Notes: a model not told the origin generated them from the sequence alone. Shown: positions 9,930 to 40,820, counted from the stretch's first letter. The stretch is 64,000 bases of DNA from Bacteroidales bacterium (GCA_015060245.1 SUYU01000013.1:6538-70537), one strand, 5' to 3'. Program-made: numbers and translations.

Positions 9930-9937
9930 TAATTTTG
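9930..9937 (+). promoter_or_regulatory. candidate -7 box (TAATTTTG) for the mraZ/dcw operon
   Basis: Exact match to the Bacteroides TAnnTTTG -7 consensus, 36 nt upstream of the mraZ ATG. A second identical box lies at 9861-9868. Confidence 0.4.
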
Positions 9938-9972
9938 CATCACCCCATATACTACTATCAAAAGGTTAAGAA

Positions 9973-10419
9973 ATGGCTAAATTCATTGGCGAATATTGCG
10001 TGAAGAAAGATGATAAGGGCAGGATCATTTTCCCTGCTCCTTTCAAGGCCGTTTTTGCACCTGAAGAGAGCCTTGTTCTTGTAATCAAAAAGAATCTCTA
10101 TGAAAACTGCCTCGACATGTACACATATCAGGAGTGGGAAAGGGAATCTGAAGGAATCAAGGCAAGACTCAACTTCTTCAACAAAGAGCACGCTCTGTTC
10201 TGGAGAGAATACATGAGAGACAGGGCTGTTGTGGAACCGGACGGCAAACTTGGCCGCATTTCCATTCCAAAGAAACTTTTGGAAGCAATTGGAGCAGACA
10301 AGGAGATTGTTCTGGCAGGTAATGACCACAAAATAGAGATTTGGGCGAAAGAGTGTTATGATGCACGCCAGATTTCGCAGGAGGATTTTGTGGCACTTGC
10401 ACAGAAACTCCTCGGTTAA
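9973..10419 (+). CDS. mraZ: transcriptional regulator MraZ
   Basis: Two DxxxR-type half domains (DDKGRIIFP, DGKLGRISIP); first gene of the dcw cluster. Confidence 0.95.
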   Translation: MAKFIGEYCVKKDDKGRIIFPAPFKAVFAPEESLVLVIKKNLYENCLDMYTYQEWERESEGIKARLNFFNKEHALFWREYMRDRAVVEPDGKLGRISIPKKLLEAIGADKEIVLAGNDHKIEIWAKECYDARQISQEDFVALAQKLLG

Positions 10420-10452
10420 CAATTGTTTCACAAAGTTTTACAACAGCCTGCA

Positions 10453-11355: not shown

Positions 11356-11361
11356 GCTGTC

Positions 11362-11607
11362 GGGAAGCAAAAAGGAAAGGAAAAGACAGGAAGAGGAAAA
11401 GAGGAAAAGAAGAAGAAAAGAGGAAAAGAAGAAGAAAAAGGAAAAGGACAAGAAAAAGAAAACGCAAGAGAGAAAGCAAGAGAAAACGCAAGAGAGAAAG
11501 CAAGAGAAAAAGAGAAGAGAGAAAGAGAAGAAAAAGTTCAGGTAAAAAAATAAGAAAGGGAAAAGAGGAAGGGAGAAGAAGAAAAGCAAAAAGAGAAACA
11601 GGGCAAA
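11362..11607 (+). repeat. homopurine (A/G) low-complexity spacer with internal perfect tandem duplications
   Basis: By my count 11362-11536 contains no T and only nine C. There are perfect tandem copies of 19 nt (11401-11419 and 11420-11438) and of 24 nt (11461-11484 and 11485-11508). Confidence 0.9.
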
Positions 11608-24350: not shown

Positions 24351-24352
24351 TT

Positions 24353-25774: not shown

Positions 25775-25827
25775 TGGAGCAGAAGAGCAACAGATTATAT
25801 AACGCAAACAGATAAAACCATTATATT

Positions 25828-27441
25828 ATGACAGAGAGAAAAAGACGCGTAAGATTTGCGCCAAGTCCAACAGGACCTCTTCACATGGGTGGAGTAAGGA
25901 CAGCCCTATACAATTACCTCTACGCAAAACAGGCCGGAGGAGATTTTATCTTGAGAATTGAGGATACAGACTCCCAGCGCTTTGTTCCGGGAGCGGAGAA
26001 ATATATAATTGAATCATTGAAATGGTGCGGAATCTATCCCGACGAGGGAGTTGATGCAGAGGGCAATGTAATTGAAACACCTTCTGAGAGGCATCCGCAT
26101 GCACCATACCGCCAGTCACAGCGAAAACCTATCTACAGGGCATATGCAGAGCAACTTATTGAGAACGGATATGCCTACTACGCATTTGACTCGGCTGAGG
26201 AACTTGATGCTAAACGCAAGGAGGCAGAGGCGAACAAGAGCACATTTACCTACAACTACATTACCCGAATGGAGTTGAAGAACTCGCTTACTTTGCCTGC
26301 AGAGGAGGTTGAGAACTTGCTCAAGACCACAAACAACTGGACAGTACGTTTCAAGAACCCTGAAAACAGGGTTGTAGAGATGGATGACCTTATCCGCGGC
26401 CACATTGAGATAAACACAAATACACTTGATGACAAAGTGTTGTGGAAAGCGGCAGACCAGTTGCCTACCTATCACCTTGCCAATATTGTAGATGACCATC
26501 TTATGGAGATTACAGAGGTTATACGCGGCGAAGAGTGGCTGCCTTCTCTCCCACTCCACTACCTTCTTTATGAAGCATTCGGATGGCAGGAGTCGCAGCC
26601 CCGTTTTGCCCACCTTTCTCTTCTTCTCAAACCCGACGGAAAGGGCAAATTGAGCAAACGCGACGGTGACCGCCTCGGATTCCCTGTATTCCCGCTAAAA
26701 TGGGTCAATGCCGAGGGTGAGGTATCGCGCGGATACAGAGAAGACGGCTACTATCCGGAAGCCTTTGTAAACATGCTTGCACTACTTGGCTGGAACCCGG
26801 GCACAGAGCAGGAACTCTTCACTTTGGATGAACTTATAGAGGTATTCTCACTTGAAAGGGTAATCAAATCGGGAGCCCGTTTCAACCCGGATAAAGCAAA
26901 ATGGTTCAATCAGGAGTATTTGAGAAAACAGACCAACAGCCAGTTGGCAGAGCAGTTCTCCACTATTCTTGAGGAAAAAGGCATAACAGTAGAGAGCAAT
27001 GAAAAAGGAATAAGGGCCGATTTTGAGGGTAAAAACTTCTCTTTTGGCTATGTGGAGTCACTCTGTGGCCTGATTAAAGAGAGAGCCCACTTTGTGGCTG
27101 ACTTCTGGGACATCTGCAGTTATTTCTTCATTGCACCTGCAAGTTACGCAGAAAAAGATGTCAAGAAGTTCTGGAATGCAGAGACCAAAGCCATTATTGA
27201 AAAGATGTACTCGCACATTGAGGCAATGGATCCTCAAATGCAGGTACCTCAGATTGAAGAGTACCTTACAGGTTATGTAAAGGAGAATGAATGGAAGATG
27301 GGAGCAGTCATGAATACATTGCGTCTCTTCTTTGTAGGCGAGGCAAAAGGCCTCGGCATTGCCGACATAGTTTACCTGATTGGCCAGAAAGAGACTCTCG
27401 GCCGTATCTCTGCAGCAATAGAGGCTCTTCCTGTAGAATAA
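25828..27441 (+). CDS. gltX: glutamate--tRNA ligase
   Basis: HIGH-type motif PTGPLHMGGVRTA and KMSKS-type motif KLSKR. Confidence 0.95.
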   Translation: MTERKRRVRFAPSPTGPLHMGGVRTALYNYLYAKQAGGDFILRIEDTDSQRFVPGAEKYIIESLKWCGIYPDEGVDAEGNVIETPSERHPHAPYRQSQRKPIYRAYAEQLIENGYAYYAFDSAEELDAKRKEAEANKSTFTYNYITRMELKNSLTLPAEEVENLLKTTNNWTVRFKNPENRVVEMDDLIRGHIEINTNTLDDKVLWKAADQLPTYHLANIVDDHLMEITEVIRGEEWLPSLPLHYLLYEAFGWQESQPRFAHLSLLLKPDGKGKLSKRDGDRLGFPVFPLKWVNAEGEVSRGYREDGYYPEAFVNMLALLGWNPGTEQELFTLDELIEVFSLERVIKSGARFNPDKAKWFNQEYLRKQTNSQLAEQFSTILEEKGITVESNEKGIRADFEGKNFSFGYVESLCGLIKERAHFVADFWDICSYFFIAPASYAEKDVKKFWNAETKAIIEKMYSHIEAMDPQMQVPQIEEYLTGYVKENEWKMGAVMNTLRLFFVGEAKGLGIADIVYLIGQKETLGRISAAIEALPVE

Positions 27442-27625: not shown

Positions 27626-27735
27626 CTATTTTAGCGTTGCAACCACCAGCACCGGATTGCTCTCCTCTGTGAGAGTGGCGGCTATCTCTTTCATTTTTGG
27701 AGAATTGCTCTTTGTGGCATATTCAATGAATTTGT
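27626..27735 (-). repeat. shared 3'-end repeat, copy A
   Basis: Near-identical at nucleotide level to the copies at 31640, 32904 and 34614 (ctattttagcgttgcaaccac.agcaccggattgctctc...ggagaattgctctttgtggcatattcaat). Confidence 0.9.
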
Positions 27736-28834
27736 CAGCAGCAATAATCTGATACATCTTGTTGCCTATACAATGTTGTGGATCAAATGGAGCACCGCCA
27801 TCAATATCATTAACGAAACCATGAGCCTTGAATTCATAATTATAAGGCATCGTATATAACTCATTACTGACCTTATCCAGAATCATAACTCCTTTTTTAA
27901 ATTCAGAATCAGATCCTCTGCTATATATGCCCGACAATGAATATTTATTGCCCAATAAAGAAATACTAATAAAACTTGCGCACTCTTTTACACTATTGAA
28001 GTTTACATCAAACCTCAACCTGTCGCCACCATCCTTCGTAATGACATCCCTTTTATACTTTCCAAAATCAAATATATAATTGGACAATTCCTTAAAATCA
28101 GTACTGAAGAGAGTAAGCCTGTCACCCATACCATTAAACACCCTCAAAGCACCATTAAATGAATACACCAAATCCGGGCAGACGATATCCATATCTCCTA
28201 AAAATGCCCCCTTCATACAATAAGAACCCTCCTCTGACAATTCGTATGAAAAAACAACTTTTGACATAGTATCAACAACAAATACCTTCTGCAAATACTT
28301 AAGTTTATCCACCATTATTGCCGCTGTAAATGCATAGTTGCCTTTCTCCAAATATGCTCCATACCTTATTGTTGAGCCACCTTGAATATTAGGTCTAATT
28401 ACCCTAACATTGCTGTTTTCTACATAACATGAAAGAATCTTGAAATCATCAAAAAGACAAAAATCACTATTCAAGTCATGCTCTACCGAAAGTCCCTGAA
28501 TCGAAAGATACTCCTTTGGCCCACGACCTTTCCTATCAACAGTTCGTACATATTTACCTGAAGTGTCAAACACCAGTACGCTCTCCTCTTGAGTCTGTAC
28601 ATAATAATACTTTCCGTCAAAATCAAATCTTGGCACATATCCCATGACAGATTCCGGAGTAGTTTCCAAAGGTATATATTCTATTTCCTTGGCATACCTG
28701 CCCAATTTTACCTCTTTACAATTCTTTACCGCATTCTCAACAGAAAAATGCTTATTATCCACTCTGACACTACCCTCGGCAGTACCAGAACAGCAAATAA
28801 GAACAACAGACAACAATAAAAATACATTTCTCAT
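27626..28834 (-). CDS. paralog A: lipoprotein of the '6-bladed beta-propeller / BF3164-like' family
   Basis: Lipobox (MRNVFLLLSVVLICCSG; Met at 28834 preferred), family motifs EIEYIPLET, KGRGPKEY and NDIDGG, and the shared tail ...KFIEYATKSNSPKMKEIAATLTEESNPVLVVATLK. The family call comes from memory of annotated Bacteroidales proteins, not from a search. Confidence 0.7.
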   Translation of the reverse strand: MRNVFLLLSVVLICCSGTAEGSVRVDNKHFSVENAVKNCKEVKLGRYAKEIEYIPLETTPESVMGYVPRFDFDGKYYYVQTQEESVLVFDTSGKYVRTVDRKGRGPKEYLSIQGLSVEHDLNSDFCLFDDFKILSCYVENSNVRVIRPNIQGGSTIRYGAYLEKGNYAFTAAIMVDKLKYLQKVFVVDTMSKVVFSYELSEEGSYCMKGAFLGDMDIVCPDLVYSFNGALRVFNGMGDRLTLFSTDFKELSNYIFDFGKYKRDVITKDGGDRLRFDVNFNSVKECASFISISLLGNKYSLSGIYSRGSDSEFKKGVMILDKVSNELYTMPYNYEFKAHGFVNDIDGGAPFDPQHCIGNKMYQIIAADKFIEYATKSNSPKMKEIAATLTEESNPVLVVATLK

Positions 28835-28873
28835 AACAATACACTTTTCTACAGCAGGGAATATTTCTACCAC

Positions 28874-28945
28874 CTATTTTAGCGTTGCAACCACAAGCAC
28901 CGGATTGCTCTCCTCTGTGAGGGTGGAGGCGATCTCTTTAATCTG
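28874..28945 (-). repeat. shared 3'-end repeat, copy B (shorter)
   Basis: The first ~70 nt from the stop are near-identical to the other copies, then the sequence diverges. Confidence 0.85.
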
Positions 28946-30067
28946 CGGATTATCATACATTGATGCATATTCTACAAAATCAATTGCATCAACGAGCCAT
29001 ACACACTTTCCATCACTTGTAAACCACTGGGGGAAAAATGGCAATCCTCCATCAAGATCATTCTCAAATGCAACCATCCCTATTTGTGGAATATTTTTCA
29101 TTGCATATAATTGGGACTCTTTATTATCATACAATAAAAAACCTACAGACTTCACATTACCCCCACCACAAATAGTAGAGAAATAACTGTCTGGAAAAAT
29201 AAATGATAAAAGGAAAAAATTATCACAACCTCTTGCCCCTGCAAAAAACAACTTCTCGCGTGGATTTGAATTATGCCTCAAGTCCCCATATTTTCCAAAA
29301 TCTATATTATATGCAACAGACTTCTCTTCTCCGTTCAGTCTATAAATGGTTTCAAAATCCCCCTTTACCAAATGAACTGTCCCATCCATACCTTTATAGA
29401 GTTTTGAATTTGCAAGAGTGGTTCCCTCTTTACCCATCATCAACATTGGAGTTCTGTACAATTCTCCCACATTAATTACAGCCTCAACAGTTCCATTACC
29501 ATTGAGCAATACACAATGCTCAACCAAGTCTCTTGTAAGTGAATCCTGTTTTGATGTCAGAATAACATACCCATTCTGTGCCGGCATAAAATCATCTATG
29601 TACTTAACTCCAATATCCTTGACTTCCTGTAAGGATATATTGTCAATCAAATCCAATTCTTGGTCATACACCAGAATCTTTTCTCGGGTAAGTACTGAAG
29701 TATTTCCTAACTTTTCATCAAAAACTAAACTTTGAATAAAGAAATATTCGTTTAAGCCTCTTCCTCGAGTACCAATTTTTCCTTTAAACTCTCCTTTGTG
29801 ATTGAAACACCGGATTTCATCGCCATGTGATGCAAAATTATATTGGCCATTACCGCCTGAAAAAAGAAGCACATTACCCAAAAGAGACTCCTCATTCGTT
29901 TGCAGTGGTATATACTCTATAGAAGAGAAGTACTTGCTCATCTTCAAAGTTTGAGCCTCCCCAACCGCTTTCGCAAAATCAAGTTTTTTGACTTCCTGTT
30001 TATCATTTGCACAGCCAAATGCAAACAAGAACAATACAAATACTACATATTTTCTAAACATATACAT
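28874..30067 (-). CDS. paralog B: lipoprotein of the same propeller-like family
   Basis: Lipobox LFAFGC, SIEYIPLQT, RGRGLNEY, NDLDGG, and the same final 22 aa (KEIASTLTEESNPVLVVATLK). Confidence 0.7.
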   Translation of the reverse strand: MYMFRKYVVFVLFLFAFGCANDKQEVKKLDFAKAVGEAQTLKMSKYFSSIEYIPLQTNEESLLGNVLLFSGGNGQYNFASHGDEIRCFNHKGEFKGKIGTRGRGLNEYFFIQSLVFDEKLGNTSVLTREKILVYDQELDLIDNISLQEVKDIGVKYIDDFMPAQNGYVILTSKQDSLTRDLVEHCVLLNGNGTVEAVINVGELYRTPMLMMGKEGTTLANSKLYKGMDGTVHLVKGDFETIYRLNGEEKSVAYNIDFGKYGDLRHNSNPREKLFFAGARGCDNFFLLSFIFPDSYFSTICGGGNVKSVGFLLYDNKESQLYAMKNIPQIGMVAFENDLDGGLPFFPQWFTSDGKCVWLVDAIDFVEYASMYDNPQIKEIASTLTEESNPVLVVATLK

Positions 30068-30176
30068 ATCTTAATTAGTTGGTAAATCATCTTCGCCTAC
30101 CCATTGACATCTTTTACATGTATAATAAATTTGGGCTTAGCAATGAAAAGTGAAAACGGGCCAGGCACAGAAATGC

Positions 30177-31280
30177 CTAAACCTCCATATAACCTAATCT
30201 GAAATCACCCTCATTATAATCACCATAAAGAAGATAGAGTTTATTACCGGTATCATCATACTTTATGTCAAATATTTCTCTATTCAATTTATATGTTTTC
30301 AATAATCTTCCTGCCCAATCATACTCTAAGATATAGTACAAATCATCTTCTAAATCTAACTTCCTGCCATAATATACGGCATATATCCTTTCTTGTGATA
30401 CAGCAATAGATACAAAACCCGTTACATCATAACTATGCTGATGATATGTGCATCCTCCTCCAGAATGCAACTTAATATATAATTTGGGAACGTGATACCT
30501 ATTCTCATTCAATAATACTATTGAATCATTTTCAAGTGAGTAAATACCCATATACGCACCATAATTTGTCCCAGTTACCATTCTTTTTCCATCCGGTCTT
30601 ACAGCAATTCTGGCAAAATCAAACATTTTTCTGCTGATCAATTCTTTGTGTTTTATTTCCACAATATTCGGATATAATGCAAATGTATCTAACAATTTAC
30701 CTTTATTATCATACAATTCGTACAGGTTCCTGTTCTTTCTCTTATTACCTGGAGTTGCTATAATTCTATCGTTTATAGGAATAATATCCGCAAAAGCCAA
30801 TTGCCCCATAAATTTACCTGGAACAGGAGACAATCTTGTAAATTCAAACGGATATGAATGTGACATTATCTCTTTTACTTTATATGTATACACCGTACTT
30901 AAAGGTAAGTGTACAACATAATAAGTACTGTCATTACCTGTTGTAAAATGTACATATGTCATACCCATAATAAATTCTCCAGGCCCTCTGCCAATAGCCG
31001 CAAAACTCTTCAAATACTCGCCTGTCCTTTTTGAAAAAAGATGTTGGGTATATTCATAATCGGAGCCCGTAGCAACTACAAAACTATCTTTAACAGCGAG
31101 TTTATGATAATGAGCCGTTTCTTTCTCTATCCTGGTTATTTCAATTACATCAGCATCTTTTGCCTTACTCAAATCAGGAGGAATAAAGGCTAGAGGATTA
31201 TCATTGGCTCTATTACATGATGAAAAGGTTACGATTGTGCAAACAATATAAAAAATAATAGATGCTAATCTTAATTCCAT
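30177..31280 (-). CDS. divergent lipoprotein, distantly related to the propeller-like paralogs and lacking the shared tail
   Basis: Lipobox TFSSC and a GRGPGEF motif in the equivalent position. The C-terminus differs (…EGDFRLGYMEV) and there is no 3' repeat. Confidence 0.55.
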   Translation of the reverse strand: MELRLASIIFYIVCTIVTFSSCNRANDNPLAFIPPDLSKAKDADVIEITRIEKETAHYHKLAVKDSFVVATGSDYEYTQHLFSKRTGEYLKSFAAIGRGPGEFIMGMTYVHFTTGNDSTYYVVHLPLSTVYTYKVKEIMSHSYPFEFTRLSPVPGKFMGQLAFADIIPINDRIIATPGNKRKNRNLYELYDNKGKLLDTFALYPNIVEIKHKELISRKMFDFARIAVRPDGKRMVTGTNYGAYMGIYSLENDSIVLLNENRYHVPKLYIKLHSGGGCTYHQHSYDVTGFVSIAVSQERIYAVYYGRKLDLEDDLYYILEYDWAGRLLKTYKLNREIFDIKYDDTGNKLYLLYGDYNEGDFRLGYMEV

Positions 31281-31297
31281 TTTACATATGATATAAG

Positions 31298-31555
31298 TTA
31301 CTCTTCTTTGGTAGAAAAATCATATCCACATGTTGGGCAGATACCTCTTGTCAATTTACCATCGCCACCTTTGGGATTTGAACCATCCTCAGGAGCAAAT
31401 AATTCTCCACATCCTGGGCACACAAATATACACATATTAGTGGATGTTCCTTTACATGTTCCATAAATACCAGTAGACTCTGATTGAACTACTTGCGCAA
31501 TAGAATAAACTGCAGCCAATAAAATTGTCACTACCGACAAACCTATAATCAACAA
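31298..31555 (-). CDS. small membrane/exported protein P1 with two CPxC knuckles (zinc-ribbon-like)
   Basis: Hydrophobic N-terminus LLIIGLSVVTILLAAVYSIA, then CPGCG-23 aa-CPTCG and an acidic end. The start is uncertain: the TTG at 31555 is used in the track, and the in-frame upstream codons read ...KIKKR with no ATG. Confidence 0.55.
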   Translation of the reverse strand: MLIIGLSVVTILLAAVYSIAQVVQSESTGIYGTCKGTSTNMCIFVCPGCGELFAPEDGSNPKGGDGKLTRGICPTCGYDFSTKEE

Positions 31556-31627
31556 TCTCTTTTTTATCTTTTGATTGTTTTTAAGTAATTCTACAAGCAG
31601 TGACTATGTTGCCCCACAAAGGCTGCA

Positions 31628-31751
31628 ACCTCCCCAATCCTATTTTAGCGTTGCAACCACAAGCACCGGATTGCTCTCATCTGTGAGGGTGGAGGCAATC
31701 TCTTTCATTTGCGGAGAATTGCTCTTTGTGGCATATTCAATAAACTTGTCG
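31628..31751 (-). repeat. shared 3'-end repeat, copy C (includes 12 nt past the stop)
   Basis: Near-identical to copies D and E, including cctccccaatc downstream of the stop. Confidence 0.9.
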
Positions 31752-32836
31752 GCATTTATCATCTGATACATCTTATCTCCAGCATAGTATACAGGATCAA
31801 ATGGCATACCCCCATCAATATCATTCACAAAGCCATGAGCGTTGTACTTATAATTATATGGCATTGCTTTAAGTTTATTAGTGGCTTTGTCCAGAATCAA
31901 ACTGCCTGCAGATAAAAATTTATCATTATTACCATTGGCATATATCTCCTGTAAAGAGTGCTTGTTGCCCATAAGGATAAGTTTTATAAAAGACTCCGTT
32001 TCAAATACATTATTAATACGCAGTCCCTTTGAATTATTTATAACTACATCATTTGGATTATAGTTACCATAATCAAAAGTATAACATAACAACCTCTCAT
32101 AATTATCATCATATACTACAAGAGTATCACCTGTAGACTTTAAATATCTTAAACAACCTTTAAATGAATATAATGAGCCACTAGTTGTGGAAGTTCCTTT
32201 TATCCCCCAATTGTACACAGACTCTGTTCCTAAAATTCCCAAATTCTTTATATTCAATAAAGAATCAATAATAAATAAACCTAATGTATCTTTTCCATCA
32301 ATATTGGGAGTAGATGTACGCACTGCCATTTCCCCATCTTTAATAAAGAGACAAGAAGATACATTTGATATACCCAAAGTATCAAGATCCAAAGCCTCCA
32401 CACACTCACCATCAAGGGTATAACCAAGTATTTTAGAACCGCTTATTACGCTTATTTGATTATCCTCTTTTATGGTAAAACCATCTATCAGCATATACTC
32501 CTTTGGTCCCCTGCCATGATTATTTATAAGATTTGTGAATTTTCCATTTGAATCAAATACTGTTATGTTTGTTGAACTGTATACATAATAATTACTGTTA
32601 CCCGCTCTAAACTTGGGCGCAAGACCAATAATTGATTCCTCCTTTGTTTCCAAAGGAATATATGCTATATCTGAAGCATACTCACTCAAACATATCTCCT
32701 GGCAATTCTGCATAGCCTCCTCTATGGAATATGTTCTATTATCATTATGATTAGAGACATTGCCTGTACACCCTGTTAAAAGAAACAGCCCCATAGCAAT
32801 GAAAGCGGCATACAAATTATTGAATTCTTTTACCAT
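31640..32836 (-). CDS. paralog C: lipoprotein of the propeller-like family
   Basis: Lipobox LLTGC, DIAYIPLET, HGRGPKEY, NDIDGG and the shared tail. Confidence 0.7.
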   Translation of the reverse strand: MVKEFNNLYAAFIAMGLFLLTGCTGNVSNHNDNRTYSIEEAMQNCQEICLSEYASDIAYIPLETKEESIIGLAPKFRAGNSNYYVYSSTNITVFDSNGKFTNLINNHGRGPKEYMLIDGFTIKEDNQISVISGSKILGYTLDGECVEALDLDTLGISNVSSCLFIKDGEMAVRTSTPNIDGKDTLGLFIIDSLLNIKNLGILGTESVYNWGIKGTSTTSGSLYSFKGCLRYLKSTGDTLVVYDDNYERLLCYTFDYGNYNPNDVVINNSKGLRINNVFETESFIKLILMGNKHSLQEIYANGNNDKFLSAGSLILDKATNKLKAMPYNYKYNAHGFVNDIDGGMPFDPVYYAGDKMYQMINADKFIEYATKSNSPQMKEIASTLTDESNPVLVVATLK

Positions 32837-32840
32837 ATTA

Positions 32841-33010
32841 ACATAATTTGCATTTGCACAAAATTACAGCAAACATTTATTAAAGCCAAGAACCTCCCCA
32901 ATCTTATTTTAGCGTTGCAACCACAAGCACCGGATTGCTCTCCTCTGTGAGGGTGGCGGCTATCTCTTTCATTTTTGGAGAATTGCTCTTTGTGGCATAT
33001 TCAATAAATT
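32841..33010 (-). repeat. shared 3'-end plus downstream-intergenic repeat, copy D
   Basis: About 170 nt align with 34551-34720 at a constant offset of 1710 nt, with only a few substitutions. Confidence 0.9.
32859..32866 (-). promoter_or_regulatory. candidate -7 box TAATTTTG inside the repeated intergenic cassette, upstream of paralog C
   Basis: The minus strand reads TAATTTTG, 22 nt before the ATG at 32836. A TCTTG lies 20 nt further upstream as a possible -33 element. Confidence 0.45.
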
Positions 33011-34136
33011 TCATAGCATTTACAGCCTGATACATTTTATTACCCACAACGCGTAAAGGCACAAACGGCGCACCACCATCAATGTCATTTTTGAAACCAT
33101 GAGCATTGAATTCATAATTATACGGCAAAGCGCACATCTTATTGCTTGCTTTATCCAACATCAGGAAGCAAGTTACACGATCTTTGTGCCAACCATCTGT
33201 GTTCCATCCCTTACTGAAGACTTTCGGCATGGCCTTCAAGCGCCCGTCAAGTTTAAACAGCATAAAACTGTCAGACTCAATATTCCACCTATGCTCAATT
33301 CCTGTAATGAATTCATCTTTGACTCCATGTGAATTGCTATAATCAAAGGTAATTTGTGATAATTCTTTCAAATTATTATCATAAAATACTATTGTATCGG
33401 CGGGTAATCCTTTAGACAGCCTTAAATTCCCTTTATATGAATGAATGAATAAACCATAATTCAGACTAAATTTATTTTCCAGATTCTCGTCCTTCAATAT
33501 ATTGCATAATGTATCAACTACAAGCAGCCTCGATGATGAAAAGGACCATTTCTTATCTGGCTCACGTTTACCCGTGCATAAAACAGCATACCTGCCTTCA
33601 TTAAGGTAGACGCCTCTATAAATGCCTGAAAAACTTGACTTGTTCAAATCTAGATTTTCACTGAGTACATCTTGCATATCCAATTCTCTTACACACTTTC
33701 CATCATCTTCATATACAAGTATTTTATAATTGTCAAACAGACAAGCATACTGCTCAACAAGATCACTTTCAAGAGAGAAGTCAGATGCGCTTAAATACTC
33801 TCCTGGGCCCCGTCCGCTTTTGTTTATCTGCGAAATATATTTACCATTCTGATCAAAGATCAATACGGATTGCGGCCTATTGGCATTGTAGATATACAAA
33901 TACTTCCCATCCGTGTTTATGTCAAACACAAACATCAATGATGATTTTTCATTTGTTTCCAACGGTATATACTCTATATCTGAAAAATACTTGCTCAAAG
34001 GCACATCTGCACAATTCTCAAGTGCTTCAGAAATATTATAACGAGTATCTTCAACGCTTGCCACATTTGATCTACAGGAGACTATGGCAAACACACACAG
34101 TACCAATATATATTTACTAAATCTACTCATTGTCAT
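32904..34136 (-). CDS. paralog D: lipoprotein of the propeller-like family
   Basis: Lipobox FAIVSC, DIEYIPLET, SGRGPGEY, NDIDGG and the shared tail. The ATG at 34136 lies 2 nt after the P2 stop (the track start at 34142 is a TTG overlapping that stop). Confidence 0.7.
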   Translation of the reverse strand: MTMSRFSKYILVLCVFAIVSCRSNVASVEDTRYNISEALENCADVPLSKYFSDIEYIPLETNEKSSLMFVFDINTDGKYLYIYNANRPQSVLIFDQNGKYISQINKSGRGPGEYLSASDFSLESDLVEQYACLFDNYKILVYEDDGKCVRELDMQDVLSENLDLNKSSFSGIYRGVYLNEGRYAVLCTGKREPDKKWSFSSSRLLVVDTLCNILKDENLENKFSLNYGLFIHSYKGNLRLSKGLPADTIVFYDNNLKELSQITFDYSNSHGVKDEFITGIEHRWNIESDSFMLFKLDGRLKAMPKVFSKGWNTDGWHKDRVTCFLMLDKASNKMCALPYNYEFNAHGFKNDIDGGAPFVPLRVVGNKMYQAVNAMKFIEYATKSNSPKMKEIAATLTEESNPVLVVATLK

Positions 34137-34138
34137 TA

Positions 34139-34465
34139 TCAATAAATAATTACTATTCTATTTTCATCTAAATCAGATATATGGTAAATTTTATCTATTT
34201 CTGTAACAGAACCACAGACTTGGCAAGATATGTATGAAACATAAAAATAAGTATGATCTGTACTCATGTAATAACCACAATATTCCACTAAATTTGCCTG
34301 GTGACACACTTCACATCTTAATAATGCTGTATATGTTTGACCATTATCATTTGCGGATGTTTCAGAATTTAATCCTCCTACTGAAGTAGCCGCATTCAAA
34401 GTATTGAATGTAAAAAAAGCAATTAATGTAAGAAATAACATCTTACCAAAGGGTAATTTCTTCAT
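34139..34465 (-). CDS. small exported protein P2 with two CxxC knuckles
   Basis: Sec-type signal peptide MKKLPFGKMLFLTLIAFFTFNTLNA, then CEVCH-26 aa-CQVCG. Its stop abuts the start of paralog D. Confidence 0.65.
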   Translation of the reverse strand: MKKLPFGKMLFLTLIAFFTFNTLNAATSVGGLNSETSANDNGQTYTALLRCEVCHQANLVEYCGYYMSTDHTYFYVSYISCQVCGSVTEIDKIYHISDLDENRIVIIY

Positions 34466-34550
34466 AGCATAAATATTTTATAAAGTTAATAAATCCAAGT
34501 TTAAACATTCCCACTTGACAGCGTATCCCAAGCATTGGCTACGTTGCCAC

Positions 34551-34720
34551 ACAATATTTGCATTAGCACAAAATTACAGCAAACATTTATTAAAGCCAAG
34601 AACCTCCCCAATCCTATTTTAGCGTTGCAACCACAAGCACCGGATTGCTCTCCTCTGTGAGGGTGGCGGCTATCTCTTTCATTCTTGGAGAATTGCTCTT
34701 TGTGGCATATTCAATAAACT
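34551..34720 (-). repeat. shared 3'-end plus downstream-intergenic repeat, copy E
   Basis: See copy D. Confidence 0.9.
34569..34576 (-). promoter_or_regulatory. candidate -7 box TAATTTTG inside the repeated intergenic cassette, upstream of P2
   Basis: Same cassette as at 32859-32866, about 104 nt upstream of the P2 ATG. Confidence 0.4.
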
Positions 34721-35789
34721 TGTCGGCCTGAACCAATTGATATAAATATTTATCAGTGCAAAAATCGGGAAGAAAAGGAGCACCATAATCAATATCATTT
34801 TTAAAGCCATGAGTCTCAAATTCATAATTATATGGCATAGCACATAACTCTTTTTTTTGTTTGTCAAGAATCATAACTCCTGCTGCCAACCTTGAATCTG
34901 TACCTTTGGAATATAATTTGGCCAACGAATATTTATTGCCCAACAAACCAAATTTTATAAATCTGTCGGACTCTAAAATTTCTCTTGAATAATTACGGAG
35001 GCTATTGGGATTTTCTGCATCCAAATTATTGAAATCATATTTTCCATAATCAAATATATACCTGTCGGCCATACAATTGCCATCATATACAAACAGCGTA
35101 TCTCCATTTGCATTAAATATATATATGGAATCTTTATAGGCATATACCTTATCATTTTCTACAATTGTCATCCCATTCGCCAAAAACGAAGGCATAATAC
35201 CCAGTTCTATAGCCGATATAACATTTGATGCAGAATCTACAATTTGCAAAGATTGGTGTTCGGATTTACCTTCGCTTACCAATGCAAACATGCCTTTCCC
35301 CATATTTGCACTGGATCTTATTGACGAATAACCCGCTTGTTTTAAGTTTACGCACCTTAGACTCTTGCCTTCTATTGAATAAGAGAGTATTTTTAAACCA
35401 TCATCCACAGAGACCTCCTTATTATCTACAGATAGATGATTTACTCTCAAATACTCTTCCGGTCCCCTTCCCTTTTTATTTATTTTGCTTACGAATTTTC
35501 CTTCTTTATCAAAAATCAATATGCTGGAAGTGGATACATATATGTAGTTCTCATCGGTACAAAATAATGGATTCCTACCAATAAGAGCCTCATTTGTAGT
35601 CTGTAACGGGATATATCCCAGTTCCAATGCATACTGACTTAATGGAATATCGCGGCACATTTTAAGTGCTTCCGGAATAGAATACCTTAAGTTATCATTA
35701 TCATTGGCAGCAGAATTACATCCTGACAATAAAAGTACTATACCGCAACATAATGAAACAAAAAGCATTTTGACAAATAATCTGCTCAT
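34614..35789 (-). CDS. paralog E: lipoprotein of the propeller-like family
   Basis: Lipobox LLSGC, ELGYIPLQT, KGRGPEEY, NDIDYG and the shared tail. Confidence 0.7.
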   Translation of the reverse strand: MSRLFVKMLFVSLCCGIVLLLSGCNSAANDNDNLRYSIPEALKMCRDIPLSQYALELGYIPLQTTNEALIGRNPLFCTDENYIYVSTSSILIFDKEGKFVSKINKKGRGPEEYLRVNHLSVDNKEVSVDDGLKILSYSIEGKSLRCVNLKQAGYSSIRSSANMGKGMFALVSEGKSEHQSLQIVDSASNVISAIELGIMPSFLANGMTIVENDKVYAYKDSIYIFNANGDTLFVYDGNCMADRYIFDYGKYDFNNLDAENPNSLRNYSREILESDRFIKFGLLGNKYSLAKLYSKGTDSRLAAGVMILDKQKKELCAMPYNYEFETHGFKNDIDYGAPFLPDFCTDKYLYQLVQADKFIEYATKSNSPRMKEIAATLTEESNPVLVVATLK

Positions 35790-35819: not shown

Positions 35820-36101
35820 TTACTTATCTATATCTTCTTCCTCCGATATTATGGTCTCCTCTCCACAAGTATTGCATTTGATTTTTTCTACGATGAAATG
35901 CTCGGGATTGTTCAAATCTATATATCCATATAATCGTATGTCGTCACTACCGCATATAGGACACACAATTATAGATTGATTTTCGGCCTGAATATTTTCT
36001 TCATTCAAAATCAATAATACACCATTGCTATCTCCAGCATTTATATTTGATGAAATTACAGATACCAATAGCAATAAAGTTAGAAATTTAATTTTTTTCA
36101 T
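35820..36101 (-). CDS. small exported protein P3 with two CxxC knuckles
   Basis: Signal peptide MKKIKFLTLLLLVSVISSNINA, then CPICG-25 aa-CNTCG and an acidic tail EEEDIDK. Confidence 0.65.
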   Translation of the reverse strand: MKKIKFLTLLLLVSVISSNINAGDSNGVLLILNEENIQAENQSIIVCPICGSDDIRLYGYIDLNNPEHFIVEKIKCNTCGEETIISEEEDIDK

Positions 36102-36206: not shown

Positions 36207-36214
36207 CAAATATA
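36207..36214 (-). promoter_or_regulatory. candidate -7 box (TATATTTG) upstream of P3
   Basis: The minus strand matches TAnnTTTG, 32 nt downstream of the nearest GTTTGACA box. Confidence 0.35.
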
Positions 36215-36245
36215 GAGAATATATGGTTTTACCTCATAAAAAAAA

Positions 36246-36336
36246 GTTTGACACAGTTGTTTTTATTCAACTGATTTACAGATATATAGAATTTCAATTC
36301 TTGAAAAAGTTTGACAGGCGGGAAAAATGTTTGACA
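36246..36336 (-). promoter_or_regulatory. three direct GTTTGACA boxes (copy 1), a candidate operator array
   Basis: Boxes at 36246-36253, 36309-36316 and 36329-36336 (minus strand: YTGTCAAACWTTT). Spacings are 63 and 20 bp, close to whole helical turns. Confidence 0.5.
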
Positions 36337-36403
36337 AGTCTCTAATTTAACCTGTTTTGTGCCGATAGCCTAACCTGAAACCATCTTCATTATTTTAATT
36401 TCA

Positions 36404-38044
36404 TCAGTTGGACTTTAACAGATTGGTTATATACGTATTCAAATTGATGTTATTGATATCTGTTCCCAACTTCTTACGTATACTGCTGCTTATATGATAG
36501 TGACGGCTTTGGTTGGTATAGAATCCTATATCCTTGCCATTCATTCCTATTGCAAAGAGACAACAATACTCCATCTCCAATTCTGTAAGATTCCTTTCTT
36601 TCAGATGTGATATAAATCTGGGATGCGTAGATTTGTAGACAAGCAACAGGGAGTGCATAAACTCTTCCCTATCTTCTATAATAGTGTCTATCTTACGCCA
36701 CAACTCCTTTTCATCCCTGATTCTTGATATGAAGAGTTGGTTCAACAAATCTATTCTCTCCTTTATTATATCTGTTATTGATTTGTCAAGCGACATATTT
36801 GAGTCAAGCAACTCTTTCAAACTCGAAACCTCCTCTTCCAAAAGCGAATAAGAATGTGCCAATCTCTCCTTTTCTGCCTCTACCAATCTCTTTTCAAGCA
36901 GGCTTGACTTCAATTTTTGCCTGATGAGAACTATAATAAGCACAAGCATAAGAATAAACGATACTGATGCCAACAGTATCAGCCTCCTCAAGTTCTGCTG
37001 TTGCGTATTTTTTGTCTCGAGAGCATGCCGTTCCTCCAGGAATCGCGTATCTTCCCTTATTTGCAACAGACTCAATGAGTCACTATGAAGGAAATATTTC
37101 TTATAGCACATTAATGATTTTTCGTAATCATTAAAATTTTCATATATCTCTGATAGAATTGAATACATACGTGTTGGCCTTTCGTTTGTATAAATCTTAT
37201 ACCTTTCAACAGCATCATAAGCACTTTTATAATCCTTAATACTACAATATGCTGCGGCAACACTCAGCCATTCCACATTGCGGTGAGGTACTTTATAAGT
37301 ATATTCCAATATTGTATTTGCAACACTATCCCTTTCATAGTCTGACCTATAGGTAACCAATATTTCATAATATTGATTAAGCCAGTTGAGATTTTGGGCA
37401 GTATCAACGATACTTTCTATATACTTGAGTTCTTTAAAAGCATTTACTGAATCTGATTGTGCAAAATAACCATAAAAGAGCCTTCTGTGAGAATTGAACC
37501 AGGAACTCTCTTTACCTCCAAGTTTAAATAGATTTGCGGCTTCCTTCATACACTTGTTATGGGACTCAAAATCAAATACAGACCTGTAAATTATTCCTTG
37601 GGCAAACAGCATCCTTGCCCTGGTAAGATTGTCATTGGAGAGTTTACCCTCATCAAGACCTTTTACAAAAGCGGCCATTGCTGACTCTTCATCATGGCGG
37701 TTTCTGTAAATGGCTCCTTTATAATAGTACATGCGGAGTTTGTCTGTTGCACTGCCTTTGTGTGTATAGTAATCTATGGCGGGTTGCAACACAGAAAAGT
37801 CTGTGGTATCTATGTAATTCTTGTCCATAGCCATGGAGAGCAACAGGGAGTGCTTTGCCTCCACTTTTGCACTTCGCAGTTGCGATTGGTCAATTGACCG
37901 GAGTGTGGCCAGAGCACTGTCGGGATAATGCTCAATATATGAATCAACTTCATTGAGAAGATTTAATGCCGCACTGTTGTCACGGCATGAAACAAAAAGT
38001 GTGATTGCTGCTATAAGAAACAGATATGGAACTCTTACACTCAT
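36404..38044 (-). CDS. one-component membrane regulator: lipobox signal, TPR-like periplasmic domain, one TM helix, coiled coil and a C-terminal LuxR/GerE-like HTH (copy 1)
   Basis: N-terminus MSVRVPYLFLIAAITLFVSC, TPR-like helical repeats, TM helix LILLASVSFILMLVLIIVLI, and C-terminus LTELEMEYCCLFAIGMNGKDIGFYTNQSRHYHISSSIRKKLG. Confidence 0.6.
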   Translation of the reverse strand: MSVRVPYLFLIAAITLFVSCRDNSAALNLLNEVDSYIEHYPDSALATLRSIDQSQLRSAKVEAKHSLLLSMAMDKNYIDTTDFSVLQPAIDYYTHKGSATDKLRMYYYKGAIYRNRHDEESAMAAFVKGLDEGKLSNDNLTRARMLFAQGIIYRSVFDFESHNKCMKEAANLFKLGGKESSWFNSHRRLFYGYFAQSDSVNAFKELKYIESIVDTAQNLNWLNQYYEILVTYRSDYERDSVANTILEYTYKVPHRNVEWLSVAAAYCSIKDYKSAYDAVERYKIYTNERPTRMYSILSEIYENFNDYEKSLMCYKKYFLHSDSLSLLQIREDTRFLEERHALETKNTQQQNLRRLILLASVSFILMLVLIIVLIRQKLKSSLLEKRLVEAEKERLAHSYSLLEEEVSSLKELLDSNMSLDKSITDIIKERIDLLNQLFISRIRDEKELWRKIDTIIEDREEFMHSLLLVYKSTHPRFISHLKERNLTELEMEYCCLFAIGMNGKDIGFYTNQSRHYHISSSIRKKLGTDINNINLNTYITNLLKSN

Positions 38045-38172
38045 AAAACAATTTCTCTGTCATGATTGTACATATTGCCATACTGGCAATTTTAATTGGA
38101 AGTAATAACAAACTCTATCTTTATCTTCCCATTTCAACATCTTACCAGCGTTTATTATTAATACATAATTTG

Positions 38173-38180
38173 CAAAGTTA
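38173..38180 (-). promoter_or_regulatory. candidate -7 box (TAACTTTG) upstream of regulator copy 1
   Basis: The minus strand matches TAnnTTTG, 31 nt downstream of the nearest box of the second array. The geometry is the same as at 36207-36214. Confidence 0.35.
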
Positions 38181-38210
38181 AGCATACATGACATTATATC
38201 ATAAAAAAAA

Positions 38211-38301
38211 GTTTGACACAGTTGTTTTTATTCAACTGATTTACAGATATATAGAATTTAATTTTTTGAAAAAGTTTGACAGGCGGGAAAAATGTTTGAC
38301 A
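38211..38301 (-). promoter_or_regulatory. three direct GTTTGACA boxes (copy 2)
   Basis: Boxes at 38211-38218, 38274-38281 and 38294-38301, offset exactly 1965 nt from copy 1. Confidence 0.5.
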
Positions 38302-38368
38302 AGTCTCTAATTTAACCTGTTTTGTGCCGATAGCCTAACCTGAAACCATCTTCATTATTTTAATTTCA

Positions 38369-40006
38369 TCAGTTGGACTTTAACAGATTGGTTATATACG
38401 TATTCAAATTGATGTTATTGATATCTGTTCCCAACTTCTTACGTATACTGCTGCTTATATGATAGTGACGGCTTTGGTTGGTATAGAATCCTATATCCTT
38501 GCCATTCATTCCTATTGCAAAGAGACAACAGTACTCCATCTCCAATTCTGTAAGGTTCCTTTCTTTCAGATGTGATATAAATTTGGGATGCGTAGATTTG
38601 TAGACAAGCAACAGGGAGTGCATAAAATCTTCCCTGTCTTCTATAATGGTGTCTATCTTACGCCACAACTCCTTTTCATCCCTGATTCTTGATATAAAGA
38701 GTTGGTTCAACAAATCTATTCTCTCCTTTATTATATCTGTTATTGATTTGTCAAGCGAGATATTTGAGTCAAGCATATCTTTCAAACTCGATACCTCTTC
38801 TTCCAATAGTGAATAAGAATGTGCCAATCTCTCCTTTTCAGCCTCTACCAATCTCTTTTCAAGCAGGCTTGACTTCAATTTTTGCCTGATGACAACTACG
38901 ACAAGCAGTAACATGAGGATGAGAGATATGGATGCTGACAGTGTACGTTTCCTGGAGTTATCTTTTTCTGCATTTTCCAGTTTAAGGCCATATCGCTCCT
39001 CTATAAACTGCGTATCACTCTTCAGTTTTGCGACATTTGCTGAATCACTTCTTGAAAAATACTGCTTGTAATGGAACAATGCATCAGAAATATTACCTGA
39101 ATTCTCATGCAATTCCGACAATATAGCATGGTATCTGATATTCTGATCTGCATTATATTTGTCATATAGTCCTATAGCATCAAAACCACTATTATAATCA
39201 CCTGTGAGCAAATATGCCGCAGCAACTGAAAGCCACGGAATCTGTGAATGTTCAACATTTCTCAAATAATCAGATAATGTATTCTTAAGACTATCCTTTG
39301 CATATTGCATCTCATAACTGAGAATAGCCTCAAAACATCTATTCTTATCAGCCTTTATATCATTTAGAGCAATTTTTTTTAGATATTCTATTTGCTCTTT
39401 GGCCTTTATAGAATCATTCTTTGCAGAATATCCATAATATACATTAATCAAGGAATTTATCTCAGAGCGTCTGTTTCCTCCTTTACGAAAACAACATGAA
39501 GCCTCCTGCATACACTTTATATATGCGTCAAAGTTCCTTAAATTGTAGTATATGTTGCCTTGAGCAAACAGCATCCTTGCTCTGGTCAAATTGTCATTGG
39601 AGAGTTTCCCCTCATCAAGACCTTTTACCAAAGCGGCCATTGCAGACTCTTCATCATTGCGGTTTCTGTAAATGACACTTTTATAATAGTACATGCGGAG
39701 TTTGTCTGTTGCACTGCCTTTGTGTGTATAGTAATCTATGGCGGGTTGCAACACAGAAAAGTCTGTGGTGTCTATGTAATTCTTGTCCATAGCCATGGAG
39801 AGCAACAGGGAGTGCTTTGCCTCCACTTTTGCACTTCGCAGTTGCGATTGGTCAATTGACCGGAGTGTGGCCAGAGCACTGTCGGGATAATGCTCAATAT
39901 ATGAATCAACTTCATTGAGAAGATTTAATGCAGCACTATTGTCACGGCATGAAACAAAAAGTGTGATTGCTGCTATAAGAAACAGATATGGAACTCGGGC
40001 ACTCAT
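38369..40006 (-). CDS. one-component membrane regulator, same architecture (copy 2)
   Basis: The N-terminal ~148 aa and C-terminal ~175 aa are nearly identical to copy 1. The central ~225 aa (distal TPR region and TM helix) are strongly diverged. Confidence 0.6.
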   Translation of the reverse strand: MSARVPYLFLIAAITLFVSCRDNSAALNLLNEVDSYIEHYPDSALATLRSIDQSQLRSAKVEAKHSLLLSMAMDKNYIDTTDFSVLQPAIDYYTHKGSATDKLRMYYYKSVIYRNRNDEESAMAALVKGLDEGKLSNDNLTRARMLFAQGNIYYNLRNFDAYIKCMQEASCCFRKGGNRRSEINSLINVYYGYSAKNDSIKAKEQIEYLKKIALNDIKADKNRCFEAILSYEMQYAKDSLKNTLSDYLRNVEHSQIPWLSVAAAYLLTGDYNSGFDAIGLYDKYNADQNIRYHAILSELHENSGNISDALFHYKQYFSRSDSANVAKLKSDTQFIEERYGLKLENAEKDNSRKRTLSASISLILMLLLVVVVIRQKLKSSLLEKRLVEAEKERLAHSYSLLEEEVSSLKDMLDSNISLDKSITDIIKERIDLLNQLFISRIRDEKELWRKIDTIIEDREDFMHSLLLVYKSTHPKFISHLKERNLTELEMEYCCLFAIGMNGKDIGFYTNQSRHYHISSSIRKKLGTDINNINLNTYITNLLKSN

Positions 40007-40019
40007 TTTGGGGCAGTTG

Positions 40020-40778
40020 TTATTGTGCTATAAACCTGTATGCTATCTCTCCAATCTGTTTTTCCGGCGCACTTTGTGATGCAGAGAACCTGCTTCTTTT
40101 GGCTGCAGCAATGGCTGCCTTTATAAGGCACTCGTCGGATGAAGATGATGACCCTTCAATGATTGAGGCGGCAACAACATATCCTCTTCTGTTTACTGTA
40201 ATCTGCACATAAACATCGCCTCCGCCATAACATTTGTATACCGGCACCGGCAATGACATTCCTTTTCTTCCATCAAGTGAATATGAGAGCACAGAGGGGC
40301 CTTTATATGTTTCAGTTTTGCCCTTTTTCTCCTGGTTGCCTGTTGAAACATCATCATCACTACCCTGCTCCATCATGGCCTCCCTGCGGGAAGCGTCAAG
40401 TTTCTTCTGGAGTTCACGGGCCTCATCATAAACTTGTGAAGGATTCTTGAAGCGGTCATCCCTGAGGTTGCGGCCACTGCTTCTGTCTACCGCCACATTC
40501 CTGTAGGCAGAGGCCGAAACATTTCCATTCAAAAGATCTTCAACGGCCTTCTGCGCCTGAATCTTTATCTCCTCCTCCTTTATCTTCTGCTCCATCTCCT
40601 CCAAACCGGTAAAGTCAAGTACAAAGGCGGTCTCCTCCGCCACTACATTGCTTATTGTAGTTGCCAGCAGAACAATTATTATCACAAGATGGAACACCAC
40701 AGTTGAGTAGAAGCCTATTCTCCTCTCTTTGGTATTCAGAATCTCCCTGTTTATGTACTCCTTTACCCTTTTGAACAT
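40020..40778 (-). CDS. TonB C-terminal-domain-like membrane protein
   Basis: N-terminal TM helix, a charged/coiled linker, and a C-terminal GDVYVQITVNRRGYVVAASII...AAIAAAKRSRF segment resembling TonB_C. Met at 40778 preferred. Confidence 0.5.
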   Translation of the reverse strand: MFKRVKEYINREILNTKERRIGFYSTVVFHLVIIIVLLATTISNVVAEETAFVLDFTGLEEMEQKIKEEEIKIQAQKAVEDLLNGNVSASAYRNVAVDRSSGRNLRDDRFKNPSQVYDEARELQKKLDASRREAMMEQGSDDDVSTGNQEKKGKTETYKGPSVLSYSLDGRKGMSLPVPVYKCYGGGDVYVQITVNRRGYVVAASIIEGSSSSSDECLIKAAIAAAKRSRFSASQSAPEKQIGEIAYRFIAQ

Positions 40779-40820
40779 ATAAATGCAAATTTGTCGGGAA
40801 TATCCGCTTCCCGACAAATA

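Follow-up and report, generated by a model that had tools for sequence, protein, structure and literature searches.

Two adjacent genes on the minus strand of a 64,000-nucleotide (nt) stretch of DNA from an uncultured Bacteroidales bacterium of the gut (GCA_015060245.1 SUYU01000013.1:6538-70537; hereafter the window, with positions counted from its first letter) appear to encode tandem envelope-spanning one-component regulators that form a recombinational mosaic and share an operator, a statement to which, taken as a whole, we assign a probability of about 0.65. Its parts differ in strength: we are highly confident of the recombinational origin of the mosaic, and we consider it fairly probable that the two proteins are regulators acting through the operator. 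The two genes, designated A and B, are as follows:

36404-38044, minus strand: gene A, 546 amino acids (aa), the downstream copy, with native A-type N-terminus, core and tail, and with residues 375-515 of its C-terminal part B-like (converted)
38369-40006, minus strand: gene B, 545 aa, the upstream copy, with a native-type N-terminus and with a core and C-terminal domain of the type found at the related locus L035 (B type)

Both open reading frames of the 546- and 545-aa proteins named in a preliminary description of this DNA were recovered, and repeat detection gave direct-repeat periods of 1965 and 1962 nt, the first being the duplication period stated there; the 64-kb window holds no third paralog. 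The proteins belong to a large family, a homolog search yielding 753 proteins at E<=0.001. The 120 listed homologs are mostly 540-560 aa in length and, where a source is named, come from Bacteroidales genomes and gut metagenomes. A tblastn search against plasmids returned only partial N-terminal matches, and PGAP annotates relatives as 'hypothetical' or as 'TPR repeat protein'. The NCBIfam model NF053779 (BT3442_fam) matched all 55 of the family members examined over their full length, with 57.9 bits for A (E 8e-16, residues 9-538) and 48.7 bits for B (E 5e-13), neither of which reaches the cutoff of 940. Given that these scores lie far below the equivalog cutoff, A and B are distant homologs of BT3442 and not its orthologs or equivalogs. 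Literature searches on DUF6377, BT3442 and SusR-like proteins yielded no functional study of this family.

Each protein is predicted to consist of a lipoprotein signal peptide, a periplasmic sensor of about 300 aa built of tetratricopeptide repeats (TPRs), one inner-membrane helix, a coiled-coil dimerization element and a helix-turn-helix (HTH)-like domain. The lipobox LFVSC ends in Cys20 (A: 37985-37987), and a Cys is found there in at least 90% of 55 homologs. A strict PROSITE-like lipobox rule is passed by 68 of 118 homologs, and the 15 failures that were printed likewise have a hydrophobic stretch ending in Ser-Cys. The AlphaFold2 (AF2) model of the full-length protein, with a predicted local distance difference test score (pLDDT) of 85, displays a TPR solenoid spanning residues 24-320 and thereafter a single helix spanning residues 324-415, which includes the following element:

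36923-36982, minus strand: predicted transmembrane (TM) helix of A, residues ~355-374, inside the continuous helix 324-415 that leads into the cytoplasmic coiled coil

One strong hydrophobic helix is present between residues 300 and 460 in 117 of 118 homologs. Individual TPR profiles match A and B weakly and as single repeats only (E 0.004-0.02), Pfam TPR_2 is detected in 35 of 55 homologs, and the profile of the family matches a consensus TPR in the PDB at 1.5e-7. Foldseek retrieved TPR proteins (E 7.6e-5, probability 1.0), including LGN, Rap, NprR and MalT domain III. Conservation within the family is strongest in the N-terminal ~150 aa and in the HTH region. Lipidation is predicted, as is a topology with periplasmic TPRs, a single inner-membrane helix and a cytoplasmic C-terminus. 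The lipobox, the TPR domain, the single TM helix and the C-terminal helical DNA-binding-like domain, all of which the preliminary description had proposed, are thus backed at the level of prediction by family conservation and by AF2 and Foldseek. That description had also called the trans-envelope design unusual, a point that does not stand: SusR-like regulators, which are confined to Bacteroidota, share the layout of a periplasmic sensor, a membrane span and a C-terminal cytoplasmic HTH-type domain (PMC3878776), so that the design of A and B is not unusual in this phylum, and the 753 matches make theirs a large family.

The C-terminal domain ends in a four-helix HTH-like unit at residues ~485-546 (A: 36407-36592). 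Its AF2 model has a pLDDT of 87.5, with the four short helices coming last. The top specific Foldseek matches of this domain are DNA-binding domains of the LuxR/FixJ type, including a complex of RcsB with DNA (33-36% identity over 58-64 columns, root mean square deviation 2.3-3.4 A), the DNA-binding domain of ComA (TM-score 0.71, root mean square deviation 2.3 A), and VraR, QscR, SdiA and EvgA. A signature of the form LTExE..CCLYAIGLKGKEIG...SS.IR.KLG is invariant across the family. Taken together, the modelled fold suggests that the domain likely contains an HTH. By contrast, an assignment to LuxR/GerE, as proposed earlier, fails at the profile level and is left with a fold-level similarity that is non-significant: the GerE model PF00196 gave no match at E<=0.1 with the full proteins or at E<=1 with 23 C-terminal domains, and a search of PDB sequences with the family profile drew in no HTH. 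We accordingly rejected LuxR/GerE as a classification by sequence.

Downstream of each gene lies a shared block of DNA, and each block is followed at the equivalent position by a candidate -7 promoter element of the Bacteroidetes type:

36236-36403, minus strand: shared region downstream of A, predicted operator, with TGTCAAAC boxes at 36329-36336, 36309-36316 and 36246-36253
36207-36214, minus strand: -7 box TATATTTG, predicted promoter of the downstream operon
38201-38368, minus strand: shared region downstream of B, predicted operator copy ahead of gene A, with boxes at 38294-38301, 38274-38281 and 38211-38218
38173-38180, minus strand: -7 box TAACTTTG, in the equivalent position, predicted promoter of gene A

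Each region contains three direct boxes of the form TGTCAAAC(A/T)TTTT, with start-to-start spacings of 20 and 63 nt, and the -7 box lies about 31 nt past the promoter-proximal box. Both -7 boxes match the consensus known from Bacteroides promoters, TAnnTTTG. The TGTCAAAC 8-mer occurs 16 times in the 64-kb window against 2.5 occurrences expected, and the extended motif is restricted to these six sites apart from one lone variant at 19614; a scan with the extended motif thus detected no further regulon members in the window. The boxes, which are shared by five related loci and conserved between species, are retained downstream of B in L036, though the DNA around them has diverged, in L035 and L038, and with single-base variants in L039. 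More widely, direct repeats occur just past the stop codon of the family member at ten other loci (L005, L007, L009, L010, L013, L015, L017, L018, L026 and L029), with motifs such as ATGAAAC, TGAAACT, CTGAAAT and GTCAAAC and spacings of ~20 nt and 54-98 nt; the repeated motif differs from one family locus to another. A terminator scan found no terminator-like hairpin between either regulator gene and its predicted operator, and a sigma-70 promoter scan was uninformative for Bacteroidetes. These sequence features suggest that the shared downstream DNA is likely an operator. The preliminary description was right that this DNA is duplicated, but in seeing it as duplicated DNA only it missed the predicted conserved operator and promoter. 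A short inverted repeat on the minus strand, CAGTTG-N8-CAACTG, also separates TGTCAAAC boxes two and three, at 36268-36287 and at 38233-38252; it is kept in the copies of the window and of L036, takes the form CAGCTG-N8-CAGCTG in L035, and may serve as an additional binding site or have a structural role.

In the model that we favor for the function of the pair, the three TGTCAAAC boxes would be the operator through which A and B activate the gene downstream. Since each gene would be followed by the promoter that it controls, the duplicated unit would be a gene plus its operator, and duplication of such a unit would place gene A under a copy of the operator while letting both proteins reach the promoter of the downstream operon. 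B would be transcribed with the TonB-like gene that precedes it, or just after it, and A and B would both act on the promoter of A and on that of an operon encoding a small secreted four-cysteine protein and beta-propeller lipoproteins. The outcome would be a cascade with two sensors and one operator, in which heterodimers could form through the identical coiled coils. DNA binding, activation, heterodimers and ligands are all putative in this model. Given that the HTH regions of A and B are identical and that they share a conserved predicted operator, the proposal of the preliminary description that they combine the same DNA specificity with different sensors is well motivated. The first genes of the predicted target operon are:

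35820-36101, minus strand: first predicted target gene, 93 aa, with a signal peptide and four cysteines (CxxC...CxxC)
34614-35789, minus strand: second predicted target gene, for a beta-propeller lipoprotein with six blades (DUF5128), which opens an array of six paralogs (27626-35789)

Several observations weigh against this model. The role as activators and the heterodimers are conjecture, and lipidation and topology stand at the level of prediction. The Foldseek e-values of the C-terminal domain, at 0.8-8, are not significant; searches with Pfam, NCBIfam and PDB profiles identified no DNA-binding family; and an hhalign comparison with seven LuxR-type sequences, which is only indicative, gave a probability of 10.6% over the first 24 columns. 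A search of RNA runs gave one metatranscriptome with 5% of the locus words, in which no transcription starts were readable. An alternative is that A and B bind no DNA and are membrane-anchored TPR scaffolds or chaperones for the adjacent lipoprotein genes, a role first proposed for BT3442, the repeats being promoter elements read by another factor. This alternative gains from the profile searches, which gave no significant HTH match, and from the fact that BT3442 is described only as a TPR protein-interaction protein (PMC2954219). However, it does not account well for the confident four-helix fold and the LuxR/FixJ DNA-binding domains that make up all of its best specific structural matches, nor for the invariant C-terminal signature or for the repeat motifs that vary by family locus, and the same architecture is accepted as that of a regulator in SusR. 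We therefore consider a scaffold function quite unlikely, and retain the reading of A and B as regulators.

Before the mosaic itself is considered, the reality of the tandem has to be addressed, because an assembler could stitch together the alternative alleles that two strains carry at one locus. At this site relatives do have a gene of A type or one of B type, and repeats of such length can interrupt the assembly of short reads, as in L001 and L002, which stop inside the repeat. To assess the concern, which the preliminary description had itself raised, we used the depth of Logan unitigs from the faecal metagenomes X1 and X3 (a further sample, X2, showed no unitig over the B core), including over a segment that is unique to one junction:

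38051-38200, minus strand: unique spacer (promoter core and 5' untranslated region of A), which links the operator of B to A and is found at 1x unitig depth

In X1 the depth was 43 in the flanks, 41.7 in the 150-nt spacer, 42.3 in the A core and 40.9 in the B core, as against 83-88 in the shared blocks; in X1 and X3 alike the flanks, the spacer and both cores stood at 1x and the shared blocks at about 2x. A mixture of strains would make the depth of the flanks the sum of those of both cores, and the equal 1x depth that is seen therefore indicates a real two-copy tandem. Furthermore, L036 and L037 contain the full pair of 545 and 546 aa in the same order as in the window, and the short contig L004 spans the B-to-A junction. 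The tandem is thus not an assembly artefact, and a stitching of two alleles at one locus is very improbable. The four runs X10-X13, filed under one organism label ('organism A', 2025), hold ~60% of the locus words and yield contigs of up to 197 kb; in their unitigs the 3' end and the intergenic region of copy A are variant. They may stem from a related strain that was sequenced as an isolate or after enrichment, by which experiments could become possible.

Comparison of A with B divides the genes into blocks with sharp boundaries:

37601-38050, minus strand: homogenized 5' block of A (partner in B 39563-40012), covering the lipobox signal peptide and the first TPR pairs
36926-37600, minus strand: diverged core of A (partner in B ~38891-39562), covering TPRs 4-8, then the juxtamembrane segment and almost the whole TM helix
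36404-36925, minus strand: homogenized 3' block of A (partner in B 38369-38890), covering the coiled coil and the cytoplasmic helical domain

A sliding-window comparison gave identities of 92-100% in the 5' ends (first ~450 nt), 42-65% in the core (~675 nt), 88-100% in the 3' ends (last ~520 nt) and 95-100% over the ~170 nt past the stop codon. In terms of counts, the copies differ at 23 of 450 positions (5.1%) in the 5' block, at 311 of 675 (46.1%) in the core, at 15 of 522 (2.9%) in the 3' block and at 3 of 168 (1.8%) downstream, the contrast between core and ends being highly significant (Fisher p 1.6e-110). At the protein level the boundaries fall at about residue 150 and about residue 374, the second lying directly past the TM helix, the last codon of which in A falls just below 36926 and hence outside the diverged core. 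This agrees closely with the near-identical N-terminus of ~148 aa, diverged core of ~225 aa, near-identical C-terminus of ~175 aa and nearly identical ~170 nt of downstream DNA given in the preliminary description. Synonymous divergence (dS) between A and B is 0.07-0.15 in the ends and ~2.2, which is saturated, in the core. The contrast in dS, along with the near-identity of a non-coding block, excludes uneven protein constraint as the cause of the pattern. A tandem pair of family genes was also observed in L023, a metagenome-assembled genome of Bacteroidales from yak caecum (7914-9566 and 9751-11385; proteins ~30% identical to A), whose first ~450 nt (~150 codons) are 91-100% identical and whose remainder, including the C-terminal domain and downstream DNA, is ~50% identical. 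The recurrence of a breakpoint near residue 150 in this independent pair suggests that the conserved N-terminal module is a unit that tandem copies keep in common.

The relatives provide the means of tracing how the mosaic arose. In L038 and L039 the TonB-like gene is directly followed by one regulator gene only, of A type, and L035 has a single B-type gene at the same site. In the flanks the window is 89% identical to L038, 85% to L039 and 80% to L035, and this ranking (L038 > L039 > L035) is contradicted by the identities of individual segments. The A core is 77% identical to L038 and 73% to L039; the B core shares 92% of its positions with L035; in both copies of the window, residues 375-515 show 92-93% identity to L035 but only 71% to L038 and L039; and the last 30 codons of both are A-type, with 86% identity to L038. 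The same is apparent from dS. Between the window and L035 it amounts to 1.70 for udk and 2.29 for the TonB-like gene, both in the flanks, but is 0.28 in the B core and 0.23-0.30 in residues 375-515 of both copies. Between A and L038 it is 0.72 in the N-terminal block, 0.95 in the core, 0.61 in the flank and 1.58 in residues 375-515. The dS of the B core to L035, about 7-fold below that of the flanks (1.7-2.3), points to transfer between lineages, and thereby to replacement of the core by recombination, one of the two processes that had been suggested at the outset.

The other process, homogenization of the ends by gene conversion, is equally evident, since the ends are 96-100% identical between the paralogs as against 71-83% to orthologs, and since the ends of the tracts vary among strains. 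The B gene of L036 and L037 has retained a distinct sequence in its last ~30 codons (…IREKLKMDLHTTTLKNYISLLLAKE) and in the proximal intergenic DNA, where the window strain has the following tract, which is identical to A:

~38300-38445, minus strand: A-to-B gene-conversion tract, found in this strain only and covering the last ~25 codons of B and the proximal intergenic DNA; the sequence differs in L036 and L037

Conversely, the C-terminal 400 nt are 100% identical between the copies in L036 and L037, and a few differences separate them in the window. Since the differences between copies are thus unlike in the window and in L036 and L037, conversion tracts vary among strains. A plausible course of events would begin with an ancestral locus bearing a single gene of A type, which is the state of the nearest relatives. 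Next, a second copy would have acquired a B-type core and C-terminal domain by exchange with a distant L035-like lineage, in a direction that is not certain; B would then have converted residues 375-515 of A; and finally, in this strain only, A would have converted B's 3' tail together with its proximal intergenic DNA. This order and these directions are inferred from sequence, and it counts against them that the directions rest on few relatives, of which L038 and L039 are short, low-coverage metagenomic contigs.

Two accounts would dispense with exchange. A recent tandem duplication after which the sensor core diversified rapidly under selection, without any foreign DNA, would fit with the TPR core being the variable part of the family. 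However, the saturated dS (2.2) indicates that both cores are old, orthologs of each exist elsewhere (A-type in L038 and L039, B-type in L035), and the low dS of the B core to L035 set against its flanks would be left unexplained, all of which makes this account highly improbable. Unequal purifying selection after an old duplication, with no recombination, agrees with the N-terminal ~150 aa and the HTH region being the most conserved parts of the family but is refuted and retains almost no probability, as dS differs so greatly between ends and core, the 168-nt intergenic block differs by only 1.8%, the coiled coil at residues 375-420 is identical between A and B despite being poorly conserved in the family, and conversion tracts vary between sister strains.

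Comparisons with known systems help to place the recombinant regulators. In SusR-like regulators, the DNA-binding domain has no clear similarity to classical families, the gene adjoins its target operon, and the operators are predicted as direct repeats with long spacers (PMC3878776). A and B resemble them in the predicted succession of a periplasmic N-terminal sensor, a membrane span and a DNA-binding domain at the cytoplasmic C-terminus, in a likely HTH with no clear similarity to a classical family, and in a putative operator whose direct repeats are set apart by a long spacer, here the three TGTCAAAC boxes at 20 and 63 nt. Their genes likewise adjoin the predicted targets. A and B differ in that no susC/susD or glycoside hydrolase genes lie downstream, and in that their sensor is a lipobox-anchored TPR solenoid. 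Proteins with the domain PF19904 (DUF6377) look SusR-like, and we assume that this model stands for SusR. It matched A with 19.6 bits (E 7e-4), over the TM and coiled-coil part only and below the gathering cutoff of 36.7; it gave no match for B, and only 1 of 55 family members matched at E<=1e-3. With the DUF6377 match below threshold and no genes of a polysaccharide utilization locus present, membership in the SusR family was rejected and A and B are not filed there.

BT3442, the namesake of the family model, is not among the SusR paralogs (BT3705, BT3091 and others) given in PMC3878776. It heads a cluster of lipoprotein and pore-forming (MACPF) genes beside ftsZ and ftsA in B. thetaiotaomicron (PMC2954219). 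The cluster in the window likewise adjoins ftsA and ftsZ, but the predicted targets here are beta-propeller lipoproteins in place of MACPF and lipoprotein genes; the function of BT3442 is uncharacterised. The one-component layout of sensor, TM helix and DNA-binding domain is well established in ToxR, CadC and TcpP, in which, as predicted for A and B, one polypeptide joins a periplasmic sensor to a cytoplasmic DNA-binding domain through a single TM helix. In those proteins, however, the winged HTH is N-terminal and cytoplasmic and the sensor C-terminal and periplasmic, and they share no TPR, lipobox or homology with A and B. The RRNPP proteins (Rap, NprR, PlcR, ComR) and MalT/LAL-type regulators similarly couple a TPR solenoid sensor to an HTH output, but are soluble and cytoplasmic, with an N-terminal HTH in the case of RRNPP, and the fold matches to them reflect generic TPR similarity. 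In the N-terminal module, residues ~48-153 gave a match to the TPR part at the periplasmic N-terminus of the P. gingivalis sensor kinase FimS (NF053520; E 3e-4 for A, 2.5e-8 for the best family member, 7 of 55 members matching), although the output of FimS is a histidine kinase and not a fused HTH.

With respect to evolution, the closest parallels are the staphylococcal agr specificity groups and the pneumococcal comCD pherotypes, in which divergent sensor cassettes between conserved flanks are exchanged by homologous recombination. A and B likewise have a sharply bounded divergent sensor segment, with alternative alleles in related lineages and evidence of recombination, but here both alleles stand in tandem in one genome, partly homogenized by gene conversion, and no cognate signal is known. 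A more speculative proposal, which we regard as unlikely though worth stating, would combine these strands. Lipid-anchored TPR sensors would be joined by a single TM helix to an HTH of divergent type, and every such protein would act on a repeat operator that immediately follows the gene encoding it. The cores would be exchangeable specificity cassettes in the manner of agr and com pherotypes, moved between lineages through recombination inside the conserved ends, while gene conversion would keep the N-terminal docking module and the dimerization/DNA-binding module common to both tandem copies. Two periplasmic signals would then converge on one promoter, possibly by heterodimers, and these signals could be secreted peptides or proteins from the regulators' own downstream operons.

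The genes found downstream at other family loci encode radical-SAM/SPASM enzymes, OMP_b-brl_3 proteins, Peptidase_C10, DUF4249 and small secreted proteins. At four loci (L017, 3564-7376; L014, 5338-6633; L013; L029) the family member lies directly upstream of a secreted protein of ~120-130 aa, a radical-SAM/SPASM enzyme and an OMP_b-brl_3/CarboxypepD_reg barrel, and L013 also has an apparent C39-peptidase gene, noted by eye only. These gene sets look like RiPP-like clusters for peptide modification.

On the upstream side of the pair the window contains the following gene:

40020-40817, minus strand: TonB-C-like membrane protein gene, directly upstream of B, a syntenic anchor common to L035, L038 and L039

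The gap between this gene and the start of B is 13 nt. We considered and rejected a functional link with the TonB-like gene as a feature of the family, for the adjacency is limited to the window, L035, L038 and L039, and distant loci have unrelated genes upstream. The likely start codon of the TonB-like gene (ATG, ~40778) is 42 nt away from udk, and most of this gap is taken up by a hairpin at 40789-40819, with a 12-bp stem that includes 5 GC pairs and a terminator-like score on both strands. Given this hairpin, the TonB-like gene and B may form a transcription unit of their own.

On the downstream side, small proteins with signal peptides and the four-cysteine pattern CxxC...CxxC are encoded on the minus strand at 35820-36101 (93 aa) and 34139-34465 (108 aa), each just upstream of a beta-propeller lipoprotein gene. 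They gave weak matches to zinc-ribbon models and to the Cys-rich peptide model TIGR04165 (E 6.5e-5), and a comparable 93-aa Cys-rich gene precedes a TolB-like propeller gene in L035. The array at 27626-35789 (minus strand) comprises six paralogous genes for DUF5128/TolB-like six-bladed beta-propeller lipoproteins. The 3' ends of 5 of the 6 are 75-82% identical in nucleotide sequence over 115-300 nt, and two of the paralogs have near-identical C-termini (…KFIEYATKSNSPxMKEIAATLTEESNPVLVVATLK), which suggests conversion in the propeller array too. In the sister strain L036 the gene content differs in the region of this array. The array adjoins ftsA, ftsZ and gltX (22989-27441, plus strand), and its adjacency to ftsZ and ftsA, shared with the BT3442-BT3433 cluster (PMC2954219), possibly marks a common positional hotspot.

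A and B appear to be variant regulators of SusR-like layout whose family is uncharacterised and whose recombination history is clear. Gut communities are dominated by Bacteroidales, and only a few of their classes of envelope-to-DNA signaling have been studied. For a large family whose present annotation is only 'hypothetical' or 'TPR protein', the locus offers a model that can be tested, with a candidate DNA-binding domain, a candidate operator (the three TGTCAAAC boxes) and candidate target genes now named. It is also a natural case of modular sensor evolution, in which a sensor core has passed between lineages along with a predicted DNA-binding module, sister strains reveal gene conversion under way in both directions, and the breakpoint near residue 150, recurring in an unrelated pair, marks a functional module boundary. 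Many family members adjoin radical-SAM peptide-modification clusters, and, if the operator prediction is true, the repeats past the stop codon could serve to assign regulons to hundreds of members of the family.

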